From: Thermoplasmata archaeon
Lineage (GTDB): Archaea; Thermoplasmatota; Thermoplasmata; Thermoplasmatales; ARK-15
Reading direction: 5' to 3'
NCBI GenBank assembly: GCA_049965455.1
Contig: JBMFWH010000002.1
Coordinates: 1,210-65,209, forward strand
DNA length: 64,000 nucleotides
Shown here: in pieces, positions 754-28,828 of the stretch
How the letters are laid out: the number at the start of each line of letters is the position of its first letter
Numbering within the stretch: the first letter of the stretch is position 1
Notes under the pieces: generated by a model
Told to the model about the DNA's origin: nothing
Seen by the model: only the letters and a program-made list of their open reading frames with translations
Databases searched by the model: none
Translations under genes and position numbers: made by a program

Positions 754-1243
754 TCTCCACGGGCGTGTCAATTCGAGAGTGCCCATCCCTACCTTTATCT
801 GGTCTTCAATTTGTAAATGGCAATCCAAATTTCCCCAGTTTGGAAAGTCATACATAACCGTTATCCATTATTTTGAATCCGGATTGTGTCTATCTGATTG
901 AATTGTATCTGTCTCTGGATTTGTATCTGGAAAATCCTGCTCTTATGTTTTTTCCGTTCCTCTTTTCATTTATCCTTCTGTAAAAGTTATCAAATGCCCT
1001 GTCCAGTCTTCTGGCAACATCCTGTATTACAAGTGAATGAATATTCTTGTATTCCGGAAAGATCACTTTTATTTCAGGTATTTCATTCTGCTGTGTATTG
1101 GAATTGACCTTCTTTCCAGATCTGTATGTGTATATCCTTTGCTCTAACATTGCATTGTACATTTCAAGGCACAGATCAAGAGTTGTGCTCAGTGATGTGA
1201 TCTGTGAATCTGAGGGGTATATCCTGAACTTATAGGTTCTCAT
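652..1243 (-). pseudogene. tnpB: tnpB (OrfB, RNA-guided nuclease family) N-terminal remnant
   Basis: MRTYKFRIYP...GFSRYKSRDRYNSIR matches the TnpB/OrfB N-terminus. An in-frame TAG sits at 890-892, the frame continues as TQSGFKIMDNGYV, and then shifts into the 652..855 frame. The RuvC and Zn-finger parts are absent. Confidence 0.75.
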
Positions 1244-1652
1244 TGCCTTTTACCTCCTGTGAATCTACATAATTCTTCAAAACAGCAAGGGTAACCTGCC
1301 CTGAAGTTGCAAGAAAGTATGATGGCGACCAGAACTTTCCCTCCCACAGATCTTTCTTCACTTCAGGAAATTTGCGTTGTATCTCCCTTGATGTTATGGT
1401 CTTGATTGCATTGACAAACTGTGGTATTTTGAGTAATGGTGTGGATTTGAAAAGCATGTGAAAATGATCCGTATCACATTCTATATCCAATACCTCAACA
1501 TTGAATGTTTCAGCTATTTCTCTTATCTTGGTCTTGAGAAGGTCCACAACTGCATCATTGGTGAATACTTTCTTCCTGTATTTTACGACCTGGATAAAAT
1601 GATAATATAATGAATATACGGAATGTGCTCCTTTATCCAGTTCGTAAGGCAT
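1230..1652 (-). CDS. tnpA: IS200/IS605 family Y1 (HUH) transposase TnpA
   Basis: 140 aa with an HUH motif (DHFHMLF) and a C-terminal Tyr region (SPSYFLATSG). Size and order relative to tnpB are typical. Confidence 0.9.
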   Translation of the reverse strand: MPYELDKGAHSVYSLYYHFIQVVKYRKKVFTNDAVVDLLKTKIREIAETFNVEVLDIECDTDHFHMLFKSTPLLKIPQFVNAIKTITSREIQRKFPEVKKDLWEGKFWSPSYFLATSGQVTLAVLKNYVDSQEVKGNENL

Positions 1653-6616: not shown

Positions 6617-8050
6617 ATGCATCTAAGATATAGGAATTGTACAGAAAACAAGGAGGAACGGACTATGAAGTGGATTTACTACGATAGAAATAAAAAAATG
6701 ATAACTCTGGTAATAATAGTAATGTTGATGAGCCCAATACTTGTCTTTTGTTTAACAGACGATTATGCTCAGAACCAGAACAGCACACATAATGTGAAGA
6801 CACCAATATCAGGATCTTTACCGATATATATGTCCCCATTGGATCAAAATATTTTTGGCTTAATACATTCAAACATTGCCAATGTAATGATGACCAATTC
6901 ATTTATTGCTCCAAATGTTACTGTAATTTTGTTGGGGAATAATTATCTGGCTGAAACCAGTTCTACCGGGCTATTAAACATGTTTTCTACGAAAATGCAT
7001 AATGGATATGGATTTTCTGTAATAATATATGGATCATACAGCCAGAGGCATAGGTTTTTTGATGCGTGGTTTGAAGCCTTACAACTTAATAAATTAAGAA
7101 TGCCAGTCGTTTTTGCGTCTACTGTTAACGGGGATAAAAGCAATTTACAATTAGATTCTTTCATTTACAGTGCACCGGCTGTGGCTATTTCTTTAGCCCC
7201 CTATGGTATGTATGTAATCACTAATGGTACAAATATATATAGTGGCATTATCACTGCTGTCAACAAATTCTCAAATGAGGCAACTGTTAATGGTGCTTTA
7301 GTTTCTGATTATACTAATCAAAAACAATATTCATACTCTCCTATGGTGATCACTGAAAACACTTTCACTAATTACCTAGGCTATTTAGGGTGGTATTCAA
7401 ATAATGCATATTCATATGTATGGCCATTTGGGCCTAATGTAAAAGCTGCCACTCAAGAAACTGCAGTAGATTACTATGAGGCACAAACTACTAACGCAAA
7501 AGGTACATGGTACTTTTTCTTAGCATATACTCGCAATACAGTCTTTATGTATTCATATTCTAGGTATTCTTTTACATTAAGTAACATGGAGTCTATTACT
7601 AACTGGAACCCAACAAACTTTGCAGGACAAGTGCTTTATGATTGGGGCCCTACCAATAGTGGCTCAACTTCAGATATGACCTATTCTCTTTCTGCAGGTG
7701 TTAGCGGCGTTGGCGTTTCTGTAAGTTATAGTGAGCAAAATGGGATACCAATAAACTGGCAGGACAAGACAAATCCGAGTTCTGGCTATGTAAATACTGA
7801 TGAGCAGTTAGGCAGTATCAAAGACCCTGCAAAAGATTATATAACTTACGAAGTAAATCCATCATCTATTGGATTATTAGATCCAACTAAATCAGGAGGT
7901 TCTCCACCATTAATAGGCACACAAATATTCGGGGTAAATGGAGGTAATGAAAACGTTTTTATTTCTGGATGGTCATCGCAAATATCATGGAATTTTGCAT
8001 TATGGCCTACTTCTGTAGATCTTAATGGTGGGGCATGGAATAGTAGCTAA
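6617..8050 (+). CDS. hypothetical membrane-anchored/exported protein, Asn/Ser/Thr/Tyr-rich
   Basis: N-terminal hydrophobic segment (ITLVIIVMLMSPILVFCL); the likely start is M at 6665. The large extracytoplasmic part has no motif I can assign. Confidence 0.5.
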   Translation: MHLRYRNCTENKEERTMKWIYYDRNKKMITLVIIVMLMSPILVFCLTDDYAQNQNSTHNVKTPISGSLPIYMSPLDQNIFGLIHSNIANVMMTNSFIAPNVTVILLGNNYLAETSSTGLLNMFSTKMHNGYGFSVIIYGSYSQRHRFFDAWFEALQLNKLRMPVVFASTVNGDKSNLQLDSFIYSAPAVAISLAPYGMYVITNGTNIYSGIITAVNKFSNEATVNGALVSDYTNQKQYSYSPMVITENTFTNYLGYLGWYSNNAYSYVWPFGPNVKAATQETAVDYYEAQTTNAKGTWYFFLAYTRNTVFMYSYSRYSFTLSNMESITNWNPTNFAGQVLYDWGPTNSGSTSDMTYSLSAGVSGVGVSVSYSEQNGIPINWQDKTNPSSGYVNTDEQLGSIKDPAKDYITYEVNPSSIGLLDPTKSGGSPPLIGTQIFGVNGGNENVFISGWSSQISWNFALWPTSVDLNGGAWNSS

Positions 8051-8933: not shown

Positions 8934-9395
8934 TTGATAGGCATAGACATATATGGTTTTAGTAGTGGAGGTGGAGGATGTGTATTAAACAATACTTATA
9001 TTACACTAGCAAACAGAGAACAGGTACCTGTACAAGACCTGAAGGTTGGCGATGAACTCTTATCTTACAACTATAATATAGGGCAATATGTGACTGCTGA
9101 AGTAAGTAATATTTCGGCAAGTAATGTTACAAATATAATAGACATAAATAATGGCTCTTTGTATATGTCTGGACTTGGAGATCAGCCTATGCTCGTGAAA
9201 ATGCAAGATGGTGTGATCGAAACTACTACCTTGGGGCAATTAAATTACGGTATGCAGGTATATGTACCTTTGTTGCTTAAATGGATACCCATCACAAGCA
9301 TAAAGTTGTTAACAGGATCGTTTACAGTATATGACATAAAAACCATAGGCAACGTTGATTATATTGCGAATGGAGTACTGATAATACCAAAATAA
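8934..9395 (+). CDS. Hint (Hedgehog/intein-like) domain protein, probably a degenerate fragment
   Basis: GGGG-C followed by VLNNTYITLANREQVPVQDLKVGDELLS corresponds to intein block A. VYDIKTIGNVDYIANGVLIIPK corresponds to blocks F/G but lacks the terminal HN. The block B His is Gln (LGDQPMLV). Only a TTG start is available. Confidence 0.6.
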   Translation: MIGIDIYGFSSGGGGCVLNNTYITLANREQVPVQDLKVGDELLSYNYNIGQYVTAEVSNISASNVTNIIDINNGSLYMSGLGDQPMLVKMQDGVIETTTLGQLNYGMQVYVPLLLKWIPITSIKLLTGSFTVYDIKTIGNVDYIANGVLIIPK

Positions 9396-9730: not shown

Positions 9731-10006
9731 ATGGTACATGTTATAGTTGTCCACAGTTGGGAAGATTCCCAAAAGGATAAAGTAATGGATTTCGCAAAGC
9801 AAGTAACTGATATGGCTAAGAATAAAAAACTACCGAAAGAGTTGAAGTTGCTGAGCATCGATCTGGCAGAAAACAAAAATATGGCTGTTTGCAATTGGGA
9901 TGTAGATTCAGTAGACCATCTTATGCAGGTAGCCGGGCAGTTAAAACCAACCTGGAAAATAGATGCTTTTACAGCAAAGAGTGTTTACAAAAAAGGTCTT
10001 TTATAA
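9731..10006 (+). CDS. small hypothetical protein (91 aa; DUF3303-like alpha/beta pattern, uncertain)
   Basis: Clean ORF with a promoter-like element upstream. Family assignment rests on pattern resemblance only. Confidence 0.45.
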   Translation: MVHVIVVHSWEDSQKDKVMDFAKQVTDMAKNKKLPKELKLLSIDLAENKNMAVCNWDVDSVDHLMQVAGQLKPTWKIDAFTAKSVYKKGLL

Positions 10007-10209: not shown

Positions 10210-10974
10210 ATGGTTAGAATAGAGCAGAAAATGGAAAATGTACCCAGATGTGTTACTGGTATCGAAGGTCTAGATAATATATTAAATGGGGGAATACCAA
10301 GAGGAAATACTGTTCTAGTCACTGGCTCTTGTGGTACTGGGAAAACCACTTTAAGTCTGGAATTTCTAGTTCATGGCTCTGAAAATGAAGAAACATCATT
10401 ATATTTATCCGTTACAGAAGCTTCTGAAAAGCTTTTTAAGAACATGATCCCGTATACGTTTTTAACAGATAAGATCTTAAAAAGCAAAAAGATGATAGCC
10501 ATAGATCTCCCTGACATTTATGAAAAATTAGGTTTAAACAAGCTAGAATTCTCTATGGATGAAATTGATATATTAATAAACTCCATCATCTCTCTGGTAA
10601 GAGATCTAAATGTAAAGCGGTTGGTTATAGATTCCATTACTTCAATTTGTTACCGGTTAAATACAGAAGAAAAAATCAGGGAATTTATATTAAGGTTAGG
10701 CAAAGGATTATCAGAGTTAGGATGCACTACATTGCTCGTATCTGAACTATTGCCTTCTGCAAAAGGGTATTCGCAGTATGGTGTCGAAGAGGCAATCGCA
10801 GATGGGATAGTTCTCTTAGGAAACCTAGAAAGAAGAGGAGATCTCTTAAGAACAGTTCAGATTATAAAGATGAGAGGAACCACTCATTCTAGAGCCAAAT
10901 ATGTGTTAGATCTGACCTCGATGGGCATATTATTAGCACCTTTATTAAAAGGAGGAAGTGTGGAAGTGAGGTGA
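10210..10974 (+). CDS. KaiC/RecA-superfamily ATPase (COG0467-like), P-loop intact
   Basis: GIEGLDNILNGGIPRGNTVLVTGSCGTGKTT (Walker A), RLVIDS (Walker B) and KMRGTTHS near the C-terminus. The likely start is MENVPR at 10231. Confidence 0.85.
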   Translation: MVRIEQKMENVPRCVTGIEGLDNILNGGIPRGNTVLVTGSCGTGKTTLSLEFLVHGSENEETSLYLSVTEASEKLFKNMIPYTFLTDKILKSKKMIAIDLPDIYEKLGLNKLEFSMDEIDILINSIISLVRDLNVKRLVIDSITSICYRLNTEEKIREFILRLGKGLSELGCTTLLVSELLPSAKGYSQYGVEEAIADGIVLLGNLERRGDLLRTVQIIKMRGTTHSRAKYVLDLTSMGILLAPLLKGGSVEVR

Positions 10975-10981
10975 CCAATTT

Positions 10982-11545
10982 ATGAGTTTATTACCAGATT
11001 TTTCCAAGAAATTATTAGATTTGCAGGAATCTGCATCGGTATCTATACAAATTTCTATAAACACGTATTTCGATGTAATAAAAACTCTTGTAGACGATTT
11101 TTCTAACAATAAAGGTACAAACATATTTTATATTTCAGCTACAATACCTTCTAGAAACATATACAGCGTTTTGGAAATGTACGGGACCAATATTGCCAAT
11201 TTATACTTTGTGGATTGCATCTCGCACATAATGATGAGCACTACAGAATACAGTGATAAGATCTTGTATGTCGAAAGCCCAACAATGCTAGAGACGATAA
11301 TGATAAAAATTGATTTTTTGCATAGAAAATTCAAAGATAGACCGAGCTTGGTAATAATAGATTCTGTAAACTCTCTAGCCATACACAACGATCTAAAAAT
11401 CTTATCTGAATTCCTGCATATTTTTGTAACTAATCTAAGGGCTAAAAATTCTTATTTGTTCATACTTTCTATGAAAGAACAGAGCAATGCAGAGATTAAC
11501 AACACACTGAATTTGGTGAGCGATGAGATAATTAATAGCGAATAA
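10982..11545 (+). CDS. short KaiC/RecA-like paralog lacking a P-loop
   Basis: 187 aa. It keeps a Walker-B-like strand (SLVIIDSVNSL) and the NIFYIS / LYFVDC pattern of KaiC-like cores, but has no GxxGxGK[ST]. Confidence 0.55.
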   Translation: MSLLPDFSKKLLDLQESASVSIQISINTYFDVIKTLVDDFSNNKGTNIFYISATIPSRNIYSVLEMYGTNIANLYFVDCISHIMMSTTEYSDKILYVESPTMLETIMIKIDFLHRKFKDRPSLVIIDSVNSLAIHNDLKILSEFLHIFVTNLRAKNSYLFILSMKEQSNAEINNTLNLVSDEIINSE

Positions 11546-11565
11546 CAATCAGGGGGTTCAAAATT

Positions 11566-12306
11566 ATGAAAGTTACTACAACCGGAATAAAATATCTAGA
11601 TGAATGGTTGATGGACGGCATACCTTTAGGGTACACTACATTGATCACTGGCAACTCCGGTGCAGGAATAGAGTTGTTTGCAAAGCAATTTGCAGGGTCA
11701 CACGAAGAAGATGAGAATGTAGTATATTTTACCACCTCGGAGCGAGACGAGGATCTTCTCTCTATCTTTAATAACTTTAAATGGAAGTCTGATATAAAGA
11801 TTGTAAATATCGGATCCCTGTACTACAGGACAGTTTTGGAAAAAGAGTTAGAAATTAGCAAATACAGGGAAGAGGGAATTCCTGCTGGAGAACTATTAAC
11901 ACCTAGCCGTTATATCCCAAGCAAAAAAGTTGATTTCATGACTATGATTACGTATGAGATTTCTAAATTAAAACCACCCTTCAGGTTGATCATTGATTCT
12001 TTAGATTTTTTTCTTACCTTAGGAGAGCAATCTCGCATGATCTCCTCATTAAGAACTATTAAATCACATACTCAGCATAATGATGGTACTGCGTTAATAA
12101 CCATACTCACCAGTCTTGGTTCTCAGTCGGTAGAGATGGCTATCGAAGAGATCGTTGACATCATATTCAGTATGGAAATGATCAGGTCCGGAACTGGAAT
12201 AGAACGCCTATTTACCATTAAAAAGTTTAGGAACCATCCTGAAAAAACAGGAATTTTTAGATATGAAGTTACAGATTCCGGGATAAACATAAAACCATTT
12301 AAATAG
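11566..12306 (+). CDS. KaiC/RecA-like protein with degenerate Walker A
   Basis: GIKYLDEWLMDGIPLGYTTLITGNSGAGIE shows Lys-Thr replaced by Ile-Glu. RLIIDSLD is Walker B. The C-terminal FTIKKFRNHP...GINIKP matches the KaiC-like tail. Confidence 0.75.
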   Translation: MKVTTTGIKYLDEWLMDGIPLGYTTLITGNSGAGIELFAKQFAGSHEEDENVVYFTTSERDEDLLSIFNNFKWKSDIKIVNIGSLYYRTVLEKELEISKYREEGIPAGELLTPSRYIPSKKVDFMTMITYEISKLKPPFRLIIDSLDFFLTLGEQSRMISSLRTIKSHTQHNDGTALITILTSLGSQSVEMAIEEIVDIIFSMEMIRSGTGIERLFTIKKFRNHPEKTGIFRYEVTDSGINIKPFK

Positions 12307-12408
12307 CATCTCTCTTTTATCATATCAAGAGAGCGTGAGACTATTAAAGAAAAAGATTGGATAAGACTAGAAAACGCATTTACGTCTATATTTAGTGAGT
12401 ATGATAGA

Positions 12409-26057: not shown

Positions 26058-27161
26058 ATGAGATTTAGATTGCATCCACACATTTACAAATTGATAATCA
26101 TATCTGCGTTATTTACAATTTTTATTGGCACTTTATCACTGTTCACGCCCATTTCGTTCAGTTTCTTTAGCCCAAATCTCATAAAAGAACGTGGAATATT
26201 CACAATATTTATAGGATTCTTTTTACTGGTAATAAGTTTTGGCATAAAAAACAAGTCCCGGCTTGCATGGAGAGTAATCGTACTGTTTTTGCTGCTGTCT
26301 ATATTTATCATATTTTTGAAGGGTTTTACAATCTATTACATAGATCTATTTGCGATAGGATTTGATATATATATATTGATCTTGCTGATAATCCACAGGA
26401 AAGAGTACAACTACCCGACCCGATTTTTCAGCAGGCCTGAGATCTCCGTAGCATTGGTGACAATAATATTTACAGTCTCTTATGGCATTGGAGGGTCATT
26501 ACTATTTGGCTCTCAGTTTAAGCCTGAAATCAAAGATTTTTACACTGCATTATATTATACGATTGAAACTGTAACCACATTGGGTTTTGGGGATATATTG
26601 CCAGTAACTACAGTTTCTAGAATGTTTACTGCGTCTCTTGCTGTAATGGGGCTTGCAAGCTTTTTTGGTGCAATAACTATATTACTAGCCCCGATATTTC
26701 AGCAGCGAGTAAGTGAGGTGATAAATTTTATGGAACGTTTCGAGTCAAAGAATTTTAAGGACCATATCCTGGTCTGCGGGTATTCTCCCATAATTTCAGA
26801 TTTCTTGGATACCCTGAAAGACCAGGAGAAATTATTTGTAGTGATCGAGAAAAATGCGGAAAATGCAACAATGTTAAAGAATAAAGGATACATAGTCATC
26901 AATGATCATGCGGATAATGAGAAACTTTTGAACACTCTGAACTTAGAAAGTAGTCAAAAGATCCTGATATCCTCTGATGACGACGGATATAATCTCCTGA
27001 TTGCCATAACCATCAAGCAACTGGATATCGGTAAAAAATTAAAAGATCGGACGATCATCGTGGTAAACGACTCAAAAAATTATAATAAGTTTAAGGATTT
27101 TTCAGATTCTATAATAGATCCAAATAACATTTTCAAAAACTATATTTCAAAATTGATCTAA
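26058..27161 (+). CDS. potassium channel with C-terminal RCK/TrkA-N domain
   Basis: Selectivity-filter-like TVTTLGFGD followed by a Rossmann-like HILVCGYSP domain. Confidence 0.8.
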   Translation: MRFRLHPHIYKLIIISALFTIFIGTLSLFTPISFSFFSPNLIKERGIFTIFIGFFLLVISFGIKNKSRLAWRVIVLFLLLSIFIIFLKGFTIYYIDLFAIGFDIYILILLIIHRKEYNYPTRFFSRPEISVALVTIIFTVSYGIGGSLLFGSQFKPEIKDFYTALYYTIETVTTLGFGDILPVTTVSRMFTASLAVMGLASFFGAITILLAPIFQQRVSEVINFMERFESKNFKDHILVCGYSPIISDFLDTLKDQEKLFVVIEKNAENATMLKNKGYIVINDHADNEKLLNTLNLESSQKILISSDDDGYNLLIAITIKQLDIGKKLKDRTIIVVNDSKNYNKFKDFSDSIIDPNNIFKNYISKLI

Positions 27162-28828
27162 ATCCTCTTTACAAATCTGTAAATTTCGATTCCTACATTA
27201 TGCATGTTCCTAACCACGTTTTTCTTGGACCAGACAAGATCATCTTTTTCAAATATTATCGGCCCCATATACCTGCCTCTCTTCAAAACATTCTGGTCCA
27301 GTTCTTTAAGTTGCTCTTCGATTCTTCTTTCAAGAGTATCATCCACTATCGCACCCCTCTCTACTCTCAGCTTTACCAGCTCCAGTGCCGATTTATAAGT
27401 GGCATAGGCTATATCATTTTTTGTCATTTTGTCCGTCTCATAGTTCAAAAAATCAATCCATGTGTCATTACTGTTCAGCAGGTTATAATGATCTTTTAAG
27501 GTTTTTGCTTTTATCTTCAACCCATATAGATCAGATTTTTCGAAAGCAAGACTTCCAGGATCCACAAACGGGGATATAGGAGATATGAATGTGGACAGAT
27601 TCTTAGGGAATCTCGCGTAAAGTTTTTTAACATATTCGACATCGTTATCTACGTCTGAAACGCTCTGTCCGGGAATACCTACAGAAAAGAATATATCCAT
27701 TCTTCGCGCATCATATTTCATGGCATACTCTATATTTTTCTCCAGCCCTGAGTTCGCATAATATTTACCAGATAATGCCCTTATATTCTCGCTAGAAGAC
27801 TCTGGAGAGATCTCTACCGTGAACTCAGATATATTCTTGGATATTGCCTGATAATAGCTTTCTGGTGCAGGAGTAAAAATTTCGAACAATATAGGGATAT
27901 CTATACCCTCTCTCTTAACAGCTTCCAGCAGTTTAATATCGAAATCCTTGCCGGCCTCATGTATATCTCCAGTAATAAATGCCGGGCTACCCAGATTCTC
28001 TTGAATGGATTTCAGTTCTGATACAATGGTATCTATCTTCCTAACAGATACTTTGTTTCTGCAATAAAAGTTCTTGTACGCAAAATTAGAGCCGCCACAT
28101 ATCGTGCAGTTATGATGGCACCCTTTCTGGATCAATGTCATTGCTGAGGGATTGTCTACCCAGTCCCCATATGGCAAATGGTCTTCAGCACTCATAGTTT
28201 TTACAGCATTTCTATAAATTATTTTGTAATCAAGAGATACTTTATCAATGTCCTTGTCTGGATCTCTGCATTGGTTCTCCACGATTTTAGAATTGTCACG
28301 CCATGCTAGATTTGGTATCGAGCTTAAATCACCATTTCTCTCTACCGCATCTATAAGCAACGGGAAGAACGGCTCGGTTGTATCACCTTTGAGTACAAAG
28401 TCTATGAATTCATAGTTTTTTAATAGCTCGACCGCATAATATGTGGAGGAAAGCCCCCCAAATACAATCTTTGAATTTGGATGCTCTTCTTTTATAATCT
28501 TTGCTATCTCTAAAGAACCCTGAACATGAGGTAGCCAGTGCAGATCCAGCCCATATATTTGTGATTCCTGTTTTTTAATGTAATTTCTAACATCAAAGTT
28601 TTTGTGGTAAATCATCTTCACCGCTAAATTAATTATTTTAGCTTTAAACCCGTTGGAGATGATATTGTTCAGGATGCTCATAAAACCTATTGGGTACATC
28701 TCAAATATTGGTGTTGATGGTACCACATCACTGATAGGCCCTAGATTTGTACTTTTTTTTCTGAAATCGTATATACTTGGTGAATGTACTAATATAAGAT
28801 CATACATATTAGAATTGGGATATTGCAT
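27158..28828 (-). CDS. B12-binding-domain radical SAM protein (class B)
   Basis: N-terminal Rossmann-like DLILVHSPSIYDF / GLDLHW segment and a CxxxCxxC cluster (GCHHNCTICGG). 556 aa. Confidence 0.75.
   Translation of the reverse strand: MQYPNSNMYDLILVHSPSIYDFRKKSTNLGPISDVVPSTPIFEMYPIGFMSILNNIISNGFKAKIINLAVKMIYHKNFDVRNYIKKQESQIYGLDLHWLPHVQGSLEIAKIIKEEHPNSKIVFGGLSSTYYAVELLKNYEFIDFVLKGDTTEPFFPLLIDAVERNGDLSSIPNLAWRDNSKIVENQCRDPDKDIDKVSLDYKIIYRNAVKTMSAEDHLPYGDWVDNPSAMTLIQKGCHHNCTICGGSNFAYKNFYCRNKVSVRKIDTIVSELKSIQENLGSPAFITGDIHEAGKDFDIKLLEAVKREGIDIPILFEIFTPAPESYYQAISKNISEFTVEISPESSSENIRALSGKYYANSGLEKNIEYAMKYDARRMDIFFSVGIPGQSVSDVDNDVEYVKKLYARFPKNLSTFISPISPFVDPGSLAFEKSDLYGLKIKAKTLKDHYNLLNSNDTWIDFLNYETDKMTKNDIAYATYKSALELVKLRVERGAIVDDTLERRIEEQLKELDQNVLKRGRYMGPIIFEKDDLVWSKKNVVRNMHNVGIEIYRFVKRI

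Follow-up and report, generated by a model that had tools for sequence, protein, structure and literature searches.

A conserved gene trio of Thermoplasmatota encodes a predicted KaiC-like ATPase and two putatively inactivated KaiC-fold partners

Introduction

Among the candidate signaling proteins of archaea, none are as expanded or as little understood as the KaiC-family ATPases. To our knowledge, their inactivated relatives are known from comparative genomics only, and a molecular switch built with them has been predicted and never studied. Analogous arrangements exist among other RecA-fold proteins: in the Elp4-Elp5-Elp6 ring of eukaryotic Elongator and in Rad51-paralog complexes, three distinct RecA-fold paralogs, some or all of them without canonical ATPase motifs, make up one hetero-oligomer. 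The concepts of the inactivated KaiC (iKaiC) and of the KaiC signal transduction hub go back to Makarova, Galperin and Koonin (mBio 2017), as cited in PMC5847659 and PMC4858521. Among single-domain archaeal proteins, PH0186 and PH0284 have been reported to be hexamers, and RecA-like ATP sites require residues from the adjacent subunit (bioRxiv 10.1101/2021.03.19.436134).

Here, we analyzed three adjacent genes, g1, g2, and g3, within a 64,000-nucleotide stretch of a Thermoplasmata archaeon contig (JBMFWH010000002.1), referred to as the window. An earlier note on this DNA had described them as KaiC/RecA-like, separated by gaps of 7 and 20 nt, with one competent ATPase followed by two P-loop-dead paralogs, and this description holds in its coordinates and motifs alike.

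In line with the KaiC hub proposal, a single-domain KaiC ATPase is encoded beside KaiC-like domains that lack ATPase motifs, and the domain type of g2 recurs elsewhere as a fusion with membrane or sensor-like regions and within PAS/GAF/HAMP clusters. Unlike in that proposal, the trio is a fixed unit of three genes that is kept throughout the phylum and includes two distinct dead paralogs; it contains no input or output domain, and g1 is under housekeeping-level constraint. The Haloferax cirB, cirC, and cirD genes, for comparison, are dispersed and do not form one operon. Cyanobacterial KaiC, mainly its CI domain, is the best sequence and structure match of g1 and g3, sharing the positions of Walker A and B, the catalytic Glu, and the Lys/Arg finger as well as the C-terminal hairpin. 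In contrast to KaiC, a CI-CII tandem of about 500 aa, the trio proteins are single-domain (254, 187, and 246 aa), and Glu/Ala occupy the S431/T432 positions. Size and fold are also shared with the solved KaiC-like/RadA-paralog proteins PH0284 and PH0186 of Pyrococcus horikoshii and SSO2452 of Sulfolobus; however, these have intact P-loops, assemble into hexameric rings, and crystallized as homo-oligomers, whereas two of the three trio proteins are dead. ArlH (FlaH) of the archaellum motor is another KaiC-like single-domain protein and partners another machine in a nucleotide-dependent way, but, unlike g3, it has an intact Walker A, autophosphorylates, and sits in arl operons. The likeness of the trio to Elp456 and Rad51-paralog complexes is one of functional analogy only.

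Results

The trio and its immediate surroundings contain the following features.

9731..10006: upstream open reading frame (ORF), 91 aa
10176..10183, + strand: TATA-box-like element TTTATATA, about 30 nt 5' of the g1 ATG, function predicted
10210..10974, + strand: g1, 254 aa, single-domain KaiC-like ATPase with all catalytic motifs
10968..10974, + strand: Shine-Dalgarno-like GAGGTGA within the end of g1, 7 nt before the g2 ATG
10982..11545, + strand: g2, 187 aa, stand-alone, putatively inactivated KaiC-like domain
11552..11557, + strand: Shine-Dalgarno-like GGGGGT, 8 nt before the g3 ATG
11566..12306, + strand: g3, 246 aa, predicted KaiC-domain pseudo-ATPase
12310..12333, + strand: weak 7-bp inverted repeat CTCTCTT...AAGAGAG with a T-tract, just 3' of the g3 stop

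The expression signals in this list are readings of the sequence. Archaeal TATA boxes are centered about 26 to 27 nt before the transcription start, and the position of the TATA-like element would thus imply a leaderless or near-leaderless trio transcript. The GAGGTGA motif in front of g2 fits the translational coupling seen in the intergenic distances of related genomes (see below). With low confidence, the inverted repeat after g3 may mark the end of the transcription unit; beyond it, across a 102-nt spacer, lies a ubiE-like gene. A terminator scan missed this repeat and a σ70 promoter scan showed no enrichment, both searches being of the bacterial type and uninformative for an archaeon. No further KaiC-like paralogs were found within the window. 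The ORF upstream of g1, which the earlier note had called DUF3303-like, is a real, constrained gene (dN/dS of 0.009), but it has no Pfam match, DUF3303 included, and its family comprises only nine proteins without any domain. The two homologues examined elsewhere (loci L063 and L064) are not located near the trio, so that we rejected this ORF as a fourth component and see no support for a link between it and the trio.

g1 carries every active-site motif of a KaiC-type ATPase: Walker A (GSCGTGKT, residues 39 to 46, with K45/T46), the catalytic Glu70, the Walker B residue D141 within RLVIDS (residues 137 to 142), and Lys220/Arg222 at the finger positions of KaiC CI. These catalytic motifs are invariant across 44 to 45 orthologues, and phylum-wide identity is 63 to 81%. 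Against the Pfam KaiC family (PF06745; gathering threshold, 26.6 bits), g1 reaches 185.5 bits (E = 1.2e-54), and its PDB matches include KaiC (E = 2.5e-57) and PH0186 (E = 2.3e-40). By its motifs, g1 is a complete, catalytically competent KaiC-like ATPase. More specialized models score below their cutoffs: NCBIfam KaiC NF006799 (153.7 and 71.9 versus 408) and, for g1, the thermophile KaiC pair TIGR03877 and TIGR03878 (137.0 versus 307.25 and 38.8 versus 232.2) and the archaeal KaiC groups TIGR03880/03881 (123.1 versus 249.45 and 115.5 versus 247.8). PADLOC returned a 30-bit mad8 match for g1 and nothing for g2 and g3, and an anti-phage defense system was rejected as an explanation.

The suggestion that the trio might work as a KaiC-type phospho-switch found no support. 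Glu194/Ala195 of g1 align with S431/T432, which are phosphorylated in KaiC CII, and E193/E194/A195 are invariant in 45 g1 orthologues; in g3, the S431/T432 positions are taken by E194/E195. Both g1 and g3 resemble the CI (ATPase) half of KaiC. Furthermore, no KaiA or KaiB Pfam match appeared in the scanned neighboring ORFs, nor was kaiA or kaiB seen in the related loci inspected.

g3 passes the PF06745 threshold as well (96.6 bits, E = 1.9e-27), and HHalign relates it to the g1 family with 97.8% probability. Its GNSGAGIE motif (residues 29 to 36) keeps the glycine frame of the P-loop, with Ile in place of Lys and Glu in place of Thr. None of 121 relatives has a Lys at the Walker A Lys position, while the Thr position holds Glu in 113 and Asp in 8 of them. 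The family retains the Walker B residue D144 (121/121), which lies in RLIIDS (residues 140 to 145), and the finger residues K220 (121/121) and R222 (118/121). The C-terminal beta-hairpin, FRYEVTDSGINIKPF, aligns to KaiC CI, bearing out the earlier reading that g3 keeps Walker B and a KaiC-like tail. The AlphaFold2 model (pLDDT of 88.3) matches KaiC CI, PH0186, and FlaH in Foldseek at TM scores of about 0.7, and a family-specific insertion, consisting of a helix (82 to 102) and a flexible loop (about 105 to 123), sets g3 apart.

Because relatives of g3 are annotated in databases as “RAD55 family ATPase” or “recombinase RecA,” among others, one may ask whether the trio mediates recombination as a complex of RadA paralogs, comparable to Rad55-Rad57, Rad51-paralog, or Shu complexes, in which active RecA-fold subunits work together with inactive ones. 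We consider this highly improbable. Generic RecA, RadA, and RadB profiles do match, and in five loci a gene for an ERCC4/Hef-like nuclease adjoins the trio in convergent orientation. However, the names stem from the broad COG0467 (KaiC-GvpD-RAD55) label, KaiC matches surpass those to RadA, RadB, or Rad51 by tens of orders of magnitude (for g1 in the PDB, E = 2.5e-57 versus about 1e-3), and the NCBIfam RadB and RadA models score far below their cutoffs for g1 (31.1 versus 172.4 and 31.8 versus 259). Moreover, no DNA repair gene is consistently linked to the trio.

g2 is the most divergent of the three proteins. The claim that it has no P-loop and retains LVIIDS was correct (residues 123 to 128, with the Walker B-like D127-S128), but the description of g2 as core strands only was not: nearly all of the RecA core is present, and what is missing is the P-loop, the catalytic Glu, and, as the protein ends before it, the C-terminal hairpin with the Lys/Arg finger. 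GxxxxGK[ST] is missing, with Y29/D31 occupying the P-loop site, and the P-loop is absent across 46 to 51 relatives. Ile55 stands in place of the catalytic Glu, as does an Ile in 48 of 51 relatives. The family alignment and the 51 locus orthologues reveal invariant positions, namely Y29, D31, ESPTMLE (98 to 104), D127-S128, and H135-N136. At 22.8 bits, g2 stays below the PF06745 threshold, so that profile assignment places g1 and g3 in the KaiC family but not g2, even though a PF06745 match is precomputed for many of its orthologues; the weak Pfam matches of g2 are to KaiC, DUF7090, and DUF7504. Profile-profile comparison detected no similarity of g2 to g1 (7.7% probability) or g3 (1.8%). In contrast, the AlphaFold2 model of g2 (pLDDT of 90.8) finds PH0284, an archaeal protein forming KaiC-like hexamers, as its best Foldseek match (E = 4.6e-8, TM score of 0.75, root mean square deviation of 2.8 Å). 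g2 is thus KaiC-like at the level of the fold only.

The g2 profile is matched by 1,565 representative clusters. Domains of this type (the DUF7504/DUF7090/DUF835 group) form the C terminus of receptor-like, TPR/CARDB, and DUF835 proteins, the N-terminal parts of such fusions being membrane, coiled-coil, TPR/CARDB, or DUF835 regions; a KaiC ATPase fused to a g2-type domain (KaiC-iKaiC) was sought among them and not found. In one locus (L062), KaiC ATPases and HAMP-PAS/GAF proteins accompany the g2-type domain. This domain matches the “inactivated KaiC” class of comparative genomics. Both g2 and g3 have the properties of an iKaiC partner, in that Walker A or catalytic residues are lost family-wide and the genes are linked to that of an active KaiC ATPase.

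An Elongator Elp456 ancestry of the trio was prompted by Pfam matches to PAXNEB (Elp4; 21.2 versus a cutoff of 28) and Iki1 (Elp5; 17.2 versus 22.5). We rejected it, because these sub-cutoff matches fall on generic RecA motifs, because the g2 and g3 family profiles found no Elp or Rad51-paralog chain in the PDB with an E value better than about 0.6, and because the best folds are those of archaeal KaiC-like proteins, with no Elp chain among the best 50 Foldseek matches listed for g2. No Elp3-type gene was recognized among the window ORFs examined, and the radical-SAM gene at 27158 to 28828 is of the B12-binding type.

Next, we turn to conservation. Of 58 Thermoplasmatota genome loci, which cover Thermoplasmata, Aciduliprofundum/DHVE2, Methanomassiliicoccales, and related metagenome-assembled genomes, 54 have g1, g2, and g3 in the same order and on the same strand (three further loci are cut by contig ends). 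Across 49 loci, the g1-g2 gap has a median of -1 nt (range, -4 to 11) and the g2-g3 gap a median of 1 nt. These overlapping or near-zero gaps strongly suggest that the three genes function together.

Measured against a close relative, dN/dS is 0.010 for g1, 0.043 for g2, and 0.049 for g3, while TBP (0.007) and UbiD (0.051) serve as yardsticks. Purifying selection is strong on each of the three genes, and the constraint on g1 is TBP-like, at the housekeeping level. The alternative that g2 and g3 are decaying, functionless copies of g1 has the loss of the canonical Walker A as its single argument and is refuted: more than 50 genomes carry both as intact ORFs, with conserved lengths and 40 to 62% identity, their dN/dS values resemble those of neighboring enzymes, and they combine invariant family-specific motifs with confident structure predictions. 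In particular, recent pseudogenes, which the earlier note had named as the outcome that would speak against it, are ruled out by the conserved trio order, the selection, and the family-wide nature of the dead substitutions. In the alignments, the loss of nucleotide-binding residues in g2 and in g3 proves to be ancestral to each family.

In contrast to the trio itself, its flanks vary by clade. Type IV pilin or membrane sensor genes adjoin it in some lineages. ORF clustering of the 58 loci gave clade-specific neighbors only (HtpX, an HPS-RraA fusion, pilin, DUF763, ABCE1, a Hef-like nuclease, and others), and a universal fourth gene was therefore rejected. g3 is absent from two loci: in L008, the genes after g1 and g2 encode a zinc-finger protein, a membrane protein (HisKA_7TM-DUF835), and an RHH regulator; L060 is a two-gene variant with KaiC and a g2-like gene, followed by Pilin_N. 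g3 is thus not obligatory for g1 and g2.

If the neighborhood were taken as a guide to function, the trio could assist or regulate a type IV pilus or a machine resembling the archaellum, acting on a secretion ATPase as ArlH does on ArlI. In the largest clade, about 20 loci have a Pilin_N gene, sometimes in two or three copies, about 250 bp 3' of g3, and, as mentioned, such a gene follows the two-gene variant; a g2-like gene of Diapherotrites abuts T2SSE/T2SSF genes; and an association of KaiC-family ATPases with archaeal type IV pilus loci is documented (PMC4858521). g3 also matches FlaH structurally (4yds; TM score of 0.73) and, weakly, the NCBIfam ArlH model. Yet that model gives 50.5 bits for g3 (E = 2.1e-13) and 40.7 for g1, compared with a cutoff of 215, pilin adjacency is clade-specific and outside the operon, and neither the window nor four other clades have pilin, ArlI/ArlJ, or T2SSE/F genes beside the trio. 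Taken together, we regard this explanation as rather improbable.

Discussion

Kept together across an archaeal phylum, the three genes most likely form one molecular switch. With a probability of roughly 55%, we read the trio as a self-contained, translationally coupled operon whose products make up a mixed KaiC-like complex, with a single type of catalytic subunit, that acts as a nucleotide-dependent switch or adaptor. g1, g2, and g3 would assemble into a mixed, pseudo-symmetric oligomer of the KaiC/RecA type, of which a ring is the simplest form; for g2, it is the modeled fold that suggests a place in this ring. Given that the Lys/Arg finger of an ATP site is supplied by the neighboring subunit, that g1 and g3 have K220/R222, and that g2 lacks the finger hairpin, the finger of g3 would point to the ATP site of g1 and that of g1 to the pocket of g2, leaving the g3 pocket to face the fingerless g2. 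ATP would be bound and hydrolyzed at the g1 sites only. The invariant acids in the dead pockets, Glu36 in g3 and Asp31 in g2, may replace a bound phosphate and thereby lock these interfaces, which would leave one type of ATP-controlled interface as the switch. Partners may bind through g2 and through the g3-specific insertion. Such a complex would correspond, as a switch or adaptor, to the “KaiC hubs” that have been proposed in archaeal signaling; as the operon contains no input or output domain, this role is assigned by analogy only.

Alternatively, g1 may form a homo-hexameric KaiC-like ATPase, with g2 and g3 docking onto it as regulators, adaptors, or substrates, in the manner of KaiB/KaiA or of ArlH on ArlI. 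Since g1 keeps its own finger along with all other active-site motifs, an active homo-hexamer could arise without g2 and g3, as reported for PH0284 and PH0186; g2-type domains are modular add-ons on many unrelated proteins, and g3 is dispensable in L008 and L060. However, the near-invariant finger and the preserved P-loop glycine frame of g3 are hard to explain for a protein outside the ring, and tight translational coupling is more typical of stoichiometric complexes. We therefore see the homo-hexamer as a possible but doubtful explanation.

The mixed complex can also be cast in a stricter form, which we put forward tentatively and consider unlikely as it stands: an obligate, pseudo-symmetric 2:2:2 hetero-hexamer of KaiC folds that would be, in principle, a prokaryotic counterpart of the Elp456 and Rad51-paralog rings. 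Here, Glu36 of g3 and Asp31 of g2 would mimic phosphate and capture the Lys/Arg finger of the neighbor, and the g1 sites alone would cycle ATP, yielding a single-site timer or switch essential to Thermoplasmatota physiology, with which a constraint on g1 as high as that on TBP would be consistent.

Whether strict or loose in composition, a mixed complex with one catalytic subunit type would not overturn current ideas. The trio is compact, sensor-free, and exceptionally conserved, with one live and two different dead subunits and a TBP-like constraint on g1, and these properties make it a clean system for asking how pseudo-ATPases tune a RecA-type ring. It could thereby reveal the role of a KaiC hub in a phylum that comprises acidophiles, deep-sea vent archaea, and gut methanogens.

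The three genes and their protein families

The trio of KaiC/RecA-like genes (g1, g2 and g3) lies in an archaeal chromosome segment of ~36% GC, and when the coordinates were re-read they agreed exactly with the earlier note in ORFs, strand and gaps (7 nt between g1 and g2, 20 nt between g2 and g3). The expression signals listed with the genes were read from the window sequence.

10210-10974, + strand, g1, 254 aa
10982-11545, + strand, g2, 187 aa
11566-12306, + strand, g3, 246 aa
~30 nt 5' of the g1 ATG, + strand, TATA-like TTTATATA
ahead of g2, + strand, SD-like GAGGTGA
ahead of g3, + strand, SD-like GGGGGT

The motifs described there were also recovered: GSCGTGKT (residues 39-46) and RLVIDS (137-142) in g1, LVIIDS (123-128) without any GxxxxGK[ST] in g2, and GNSGAGIE (29-36) and RLIIDS (140-145) in g3. 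No further paralogs of the trio occur elsewhere in the window, which also codes for TBP and ubiquinone/menaquinone-type UbiE/UbiD/UbiA-like genes and whose remaining ORFs resemble typical archaeal housekeeping genes; PADLOC detected no defence-system signature for the trio.

By sequence, g1 encodes a single-domain ATPase of the KaiC family that is complete (PF06745, E 1.2e-54; PDB matches to KaiC, E 2.5e-57, PH0186, 2.3e-40, and PH0284, 1.1e-34), which aligns best to the CI half of KaiC (127 vs 67 bits). Its homology to g3 was recovered by profile-profile comparison with 97.8% probability, and g3 is clearly a KaiC-domain protein (PF06745, E 1.9e-27; KaiC in the PDB, E 3e-14), whose AlphaFold2 model (pLDDT 88.3) matches KaiC CI, PH0186, PH0284 and FlaH. 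The g2 protein is far more divergent: PF06745 scored 22.8 bits, under the cutoff, matches to DUF7090 and DUF7504 were weak, no PDB sequence match was obtained even with a 46-sequence profile, and profile-profile comparison with g1 and with g3 gave insignificant similarity. Its placement among KaiC-like proteins rests on predicted structure, the AlphaFold2 model (pLDDT 90.8) superposing best on the hexameric archaeal KaiC-like PH0284 (TM 0.75, rmsd 2.8 A), followed by KaiC, PH0186, SSO2452, RecA and DMC1. None of the three proteins reached the curated cutoffs for the circadian KaiC, ArlH, RadA/RadB and TIGR "archaeal KaiC" subfamilies. We consider it highly improbable that the trio is a recombination mediator. 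Kinship to Elp456, raised by weak PAXNEB and Iki1 matches, was unsupported by family-profile PDB and fold searches.

Conservation and selection

Database relatives of g2 (>1000) and g3 (293) share ~45-60% identity; Thermoplasmata MAGs supply most of them, and others belong to Aciduliprofundum, "Proteinoplasmatales" and Methanomassiliicoccales. The neighbourhood conservation that the earlier note proposed to analyse was scanned with one genome per species, which yielded 58 loci; the order g1-g2-g3 on a single strand is kept in 54, contig ends interrupt three, and a single locus (L008) has g1 and g2 followed by other genes. Compared with the window proteins, g1 is 63-81% identical, g2 42-62% and g3 40-59%, leaving out L001, a near-identical locus from a hot-spring Thermoplasmatota MAG. 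Across 49 loci the g1-g2 gap has a median of -1 nt (range -4 to 11) and the g2-g3 gap a median of 1 nt. Because the flanking genes vary between clades, the trio is a self-contained unit.

Comparison of the window with L001 (dS ~0.5) gave dN/dS values of 0.010 for g1, 0.043 for g2 and 0.049 for g3, with 0.007 for TBP and 0.051 for UbiD as comparison genes. The degenerate g2 and g3 are, on these estimates, not decaying, and the possibility that they are recent, unconserved pseudogenes is contradicted by breadth, synteny, coupling and selection. Taken together, the comparisons establish a conserved, co-translated unit in which one KaiC-fold protein is catalytic and the other two were inactivated anciently.

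Nucleotide sites

The g1 orthologues (44-45 sequences) show no variation at Walker A K45/T46, the catalytic E70, Walker B D141 or K220/R222. From the alignment and KaiC structures, we take K220/R222 to be the trans-acting Lys/Arg positions of KaiC CI, that is, the "finger" that a neighbouring subunit supplies to the ATP site. The KaiC CII phosphosites S431/T432 align to E194/A195; g1 therefore resembles CI, and phospho-switching of the KaiC type at these positions is excluded. Four g1 cysteines are near-invariant (C14 and C147 in 44/44, C172 in 43/45 and C41 in 39/44 orthologues), with C41 inside the P-loop, C147 right after Walker B and C172 opening the next core strand. The latter three should lie near the nucleotide site, a placement suggestive of an ATPase that responds to redox state or metals.

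Among 121 g3 relatives, the P-loop keeps its glycine frame (G29, P31, G32, G34). The Walker A lysine site holds T, L, V, I, M or A, with K in none of them (0/121), and the threonine site holds Glu (113) or Asp (8). D144 and K220 are retained in all 121 and R222 in 118. A family-specific insertion comprises a conserved helix (82-102) and a low-confidence loop (~105-123). In g2, the beta1-alpha1 junction at the P-loop site carries Y29 (49/51 orthologues) and D31 (Asp/Glu in 50/51), both invariant in the g2-family alignment A1; Ile55 occupies the catalytic Glu site; all 51 orthologues share D127-S128, H135-N136 and the heptad E98-SPTML-E104; and the C terminus stops short of the finger-bearing hairpin.

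A putative mixed complex

ATP sites of the RecA/KaiC type form at subunit interfaces and require residues of the neighbour, and the closest solved relatives are mostly hexamers (bioRxiv 10.1101/2021.03.19.436134). The g3 protein has a finger and a dead pocket, g2 a conserved pocket without a finger, and g1 both. We favor a mixed complex of g1, g2 and g3, at a probability of roughly 0.55 for this general kind of assembly, in which co-assembly is our inference. The subunit order that we propose satisfies this tally: the finger of g3 would reach the ATP site of g1, that of g1 the pocket of g2, and the pocket of g3 would stand opposite g2. The invariant acids of the dead pockets (E36 in g3, D31 in g2) could stand in for phosphate and fix those interfaces, which would leave a single nucleotide-controlled type of interface, and the g3 insertion and the invariant surface motifs of g2 would be candidate docking sites for an output partner. 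Alternatively, g1, which holds both elements, might build its own ring, with g2 and g3 docking on it as regulators; we regard this as less likely.

Genomic contexts of the g2-type domain

A g2-family profile search matched 1565 representative clusters at E <= 1e-3, of which only 32 reach E <= 1e-30. The others comprise stand-alone proteins of ~185 aa, some from DPANN Diapherotrites, and C-terminal domains of larger proteins, joined to TPR plus CARDB/NEW3 Ig-like domains, DUF835, membrane segments or coiled coils. Four neighbourhoods from other genomes or contigs illustrate the contexts.

L031, 6499-7462, and about 20 related loci, one to three Pilin_N genes 3' of the trio (Pilin_N E 1.5e-13)
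L060, 4582-5302, Pilin_N region after a two-gene variant
L008, 5565-8256, g3 absent; next to g1 and g2 on the 3' side, genes for a CPxCG zinc-finger protein, a HisKA_7TM membrane protein and an RHH regulator
L062, 1-8445, metagenomic contig with genes for KaiC ATPases and DUF7504 proteins, one HAMP-PAS and one GAF protein

Within the largest clade of Thermoplasmatota, the trio has a gene for a type IV pilin ~250 bp on its 3' side. The two-gene variant of L060 pairs a KaiC ATPase (GDTGTGKT) with a g2-like gene, downstream of which a 75-aa protein without Pfam match and a Pilin_N protein are encoded, and a Diapherotrites g2-like gene adjoins T2SSE/T2SSF genes. Pilin loci often also encode a small conserved protein (75-105 aa) that has no Pfam match; these proteins share a C-terminal G-W-(I/L)-W motif. 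KaiC-family ATPases have been associated with T4P loci (PMC4858521). With these neighbors on one side and the varying flanks and unreached ArlH cutoff on the other, we judge it improbable that the trio is a pilus or archaellum accessory.

In L008, the HisKA_7TM protein carries two DUF835 (inactivated KaiC-like) domains and the RHH regulator is double, so that the cluster could possibly form a complete sensor-to-transcription pathway around the g1-g2 pair. The 8.5 kb of L062 are an extreme case of clustering of a KaiC/inactivated-KaiC (iKaiC) network, with three KaiC-family ATPase genes (one two-domain) and four short genes either of DUF7504 type or with a weak KaiC domain; its g2-like protein is acidic and Lys-poor.

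Other genes of the window

890-1652, - strand, IS200/IS605-type element
1230-1652, - strand, intact Y1 transposase TnpA (Y1_Tnp E 1.2e-38)
890-1243, - strand, TnpB cut down to a 117-aa N-terminal HTH fragment (HTH_OrfB_IS605 E 1.4e-8)
6617-8050, + strand, 477-aa protein without Pfam match
8934-9395, + strand, 153-aa stand-alone ORF (weak matches: Hint E 0.013, Intein_splicing E 0.025)
9731-10006, + strand, 91-aa ORF without Pfam domain

The 91-aa ORF upstream of the trio had been labeled "DUF3303-like", a similarity that Pfam did not return. Its dN/dS of 0.009 indicates very strong purifying selection, and its database relatives number nine, one of them labeled Thermoplasmatota; its homologues in two other genomes are unlinked to the trio, in unrelated contexts. 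The ORF is a real, constrained gene for a small orphan protein. The 153-aa ORF opens with glycine-rich sequence and then a Cys; it may encode a Hint-domain protein that stands on its own, or be a hostless intein remnant. The 477-aa protein, with an N-terminal hydrophobic segment and many N-x-S/T sequons, probably represents a glycosylated surface protein restricted to the lineage.

Relation to described systems

The overall reading of the earlier note holds for the most part in outline: the ORFs and the one live and two dead paralogs stand; the phospho-switch and the DUF3303 label do not. KaiC-like ATPases with inactivated KaiC domains as archaeal signalling hubs are a concept cited in PMC5847659, and the trio and the contexts of the g2-type domain fit this pattern. 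A full-text search, whose range stopped short of the original 2017 hub description, found no literature on this exact trio. The trio fits best within the computationally predicted KaiC/iKaiC class, as a new variant with unusually strong conservation, and is not a categorically new kind of system. The operon offers a compact experimental entry to pseudo-ATPase regulation in KaiC-type rings.
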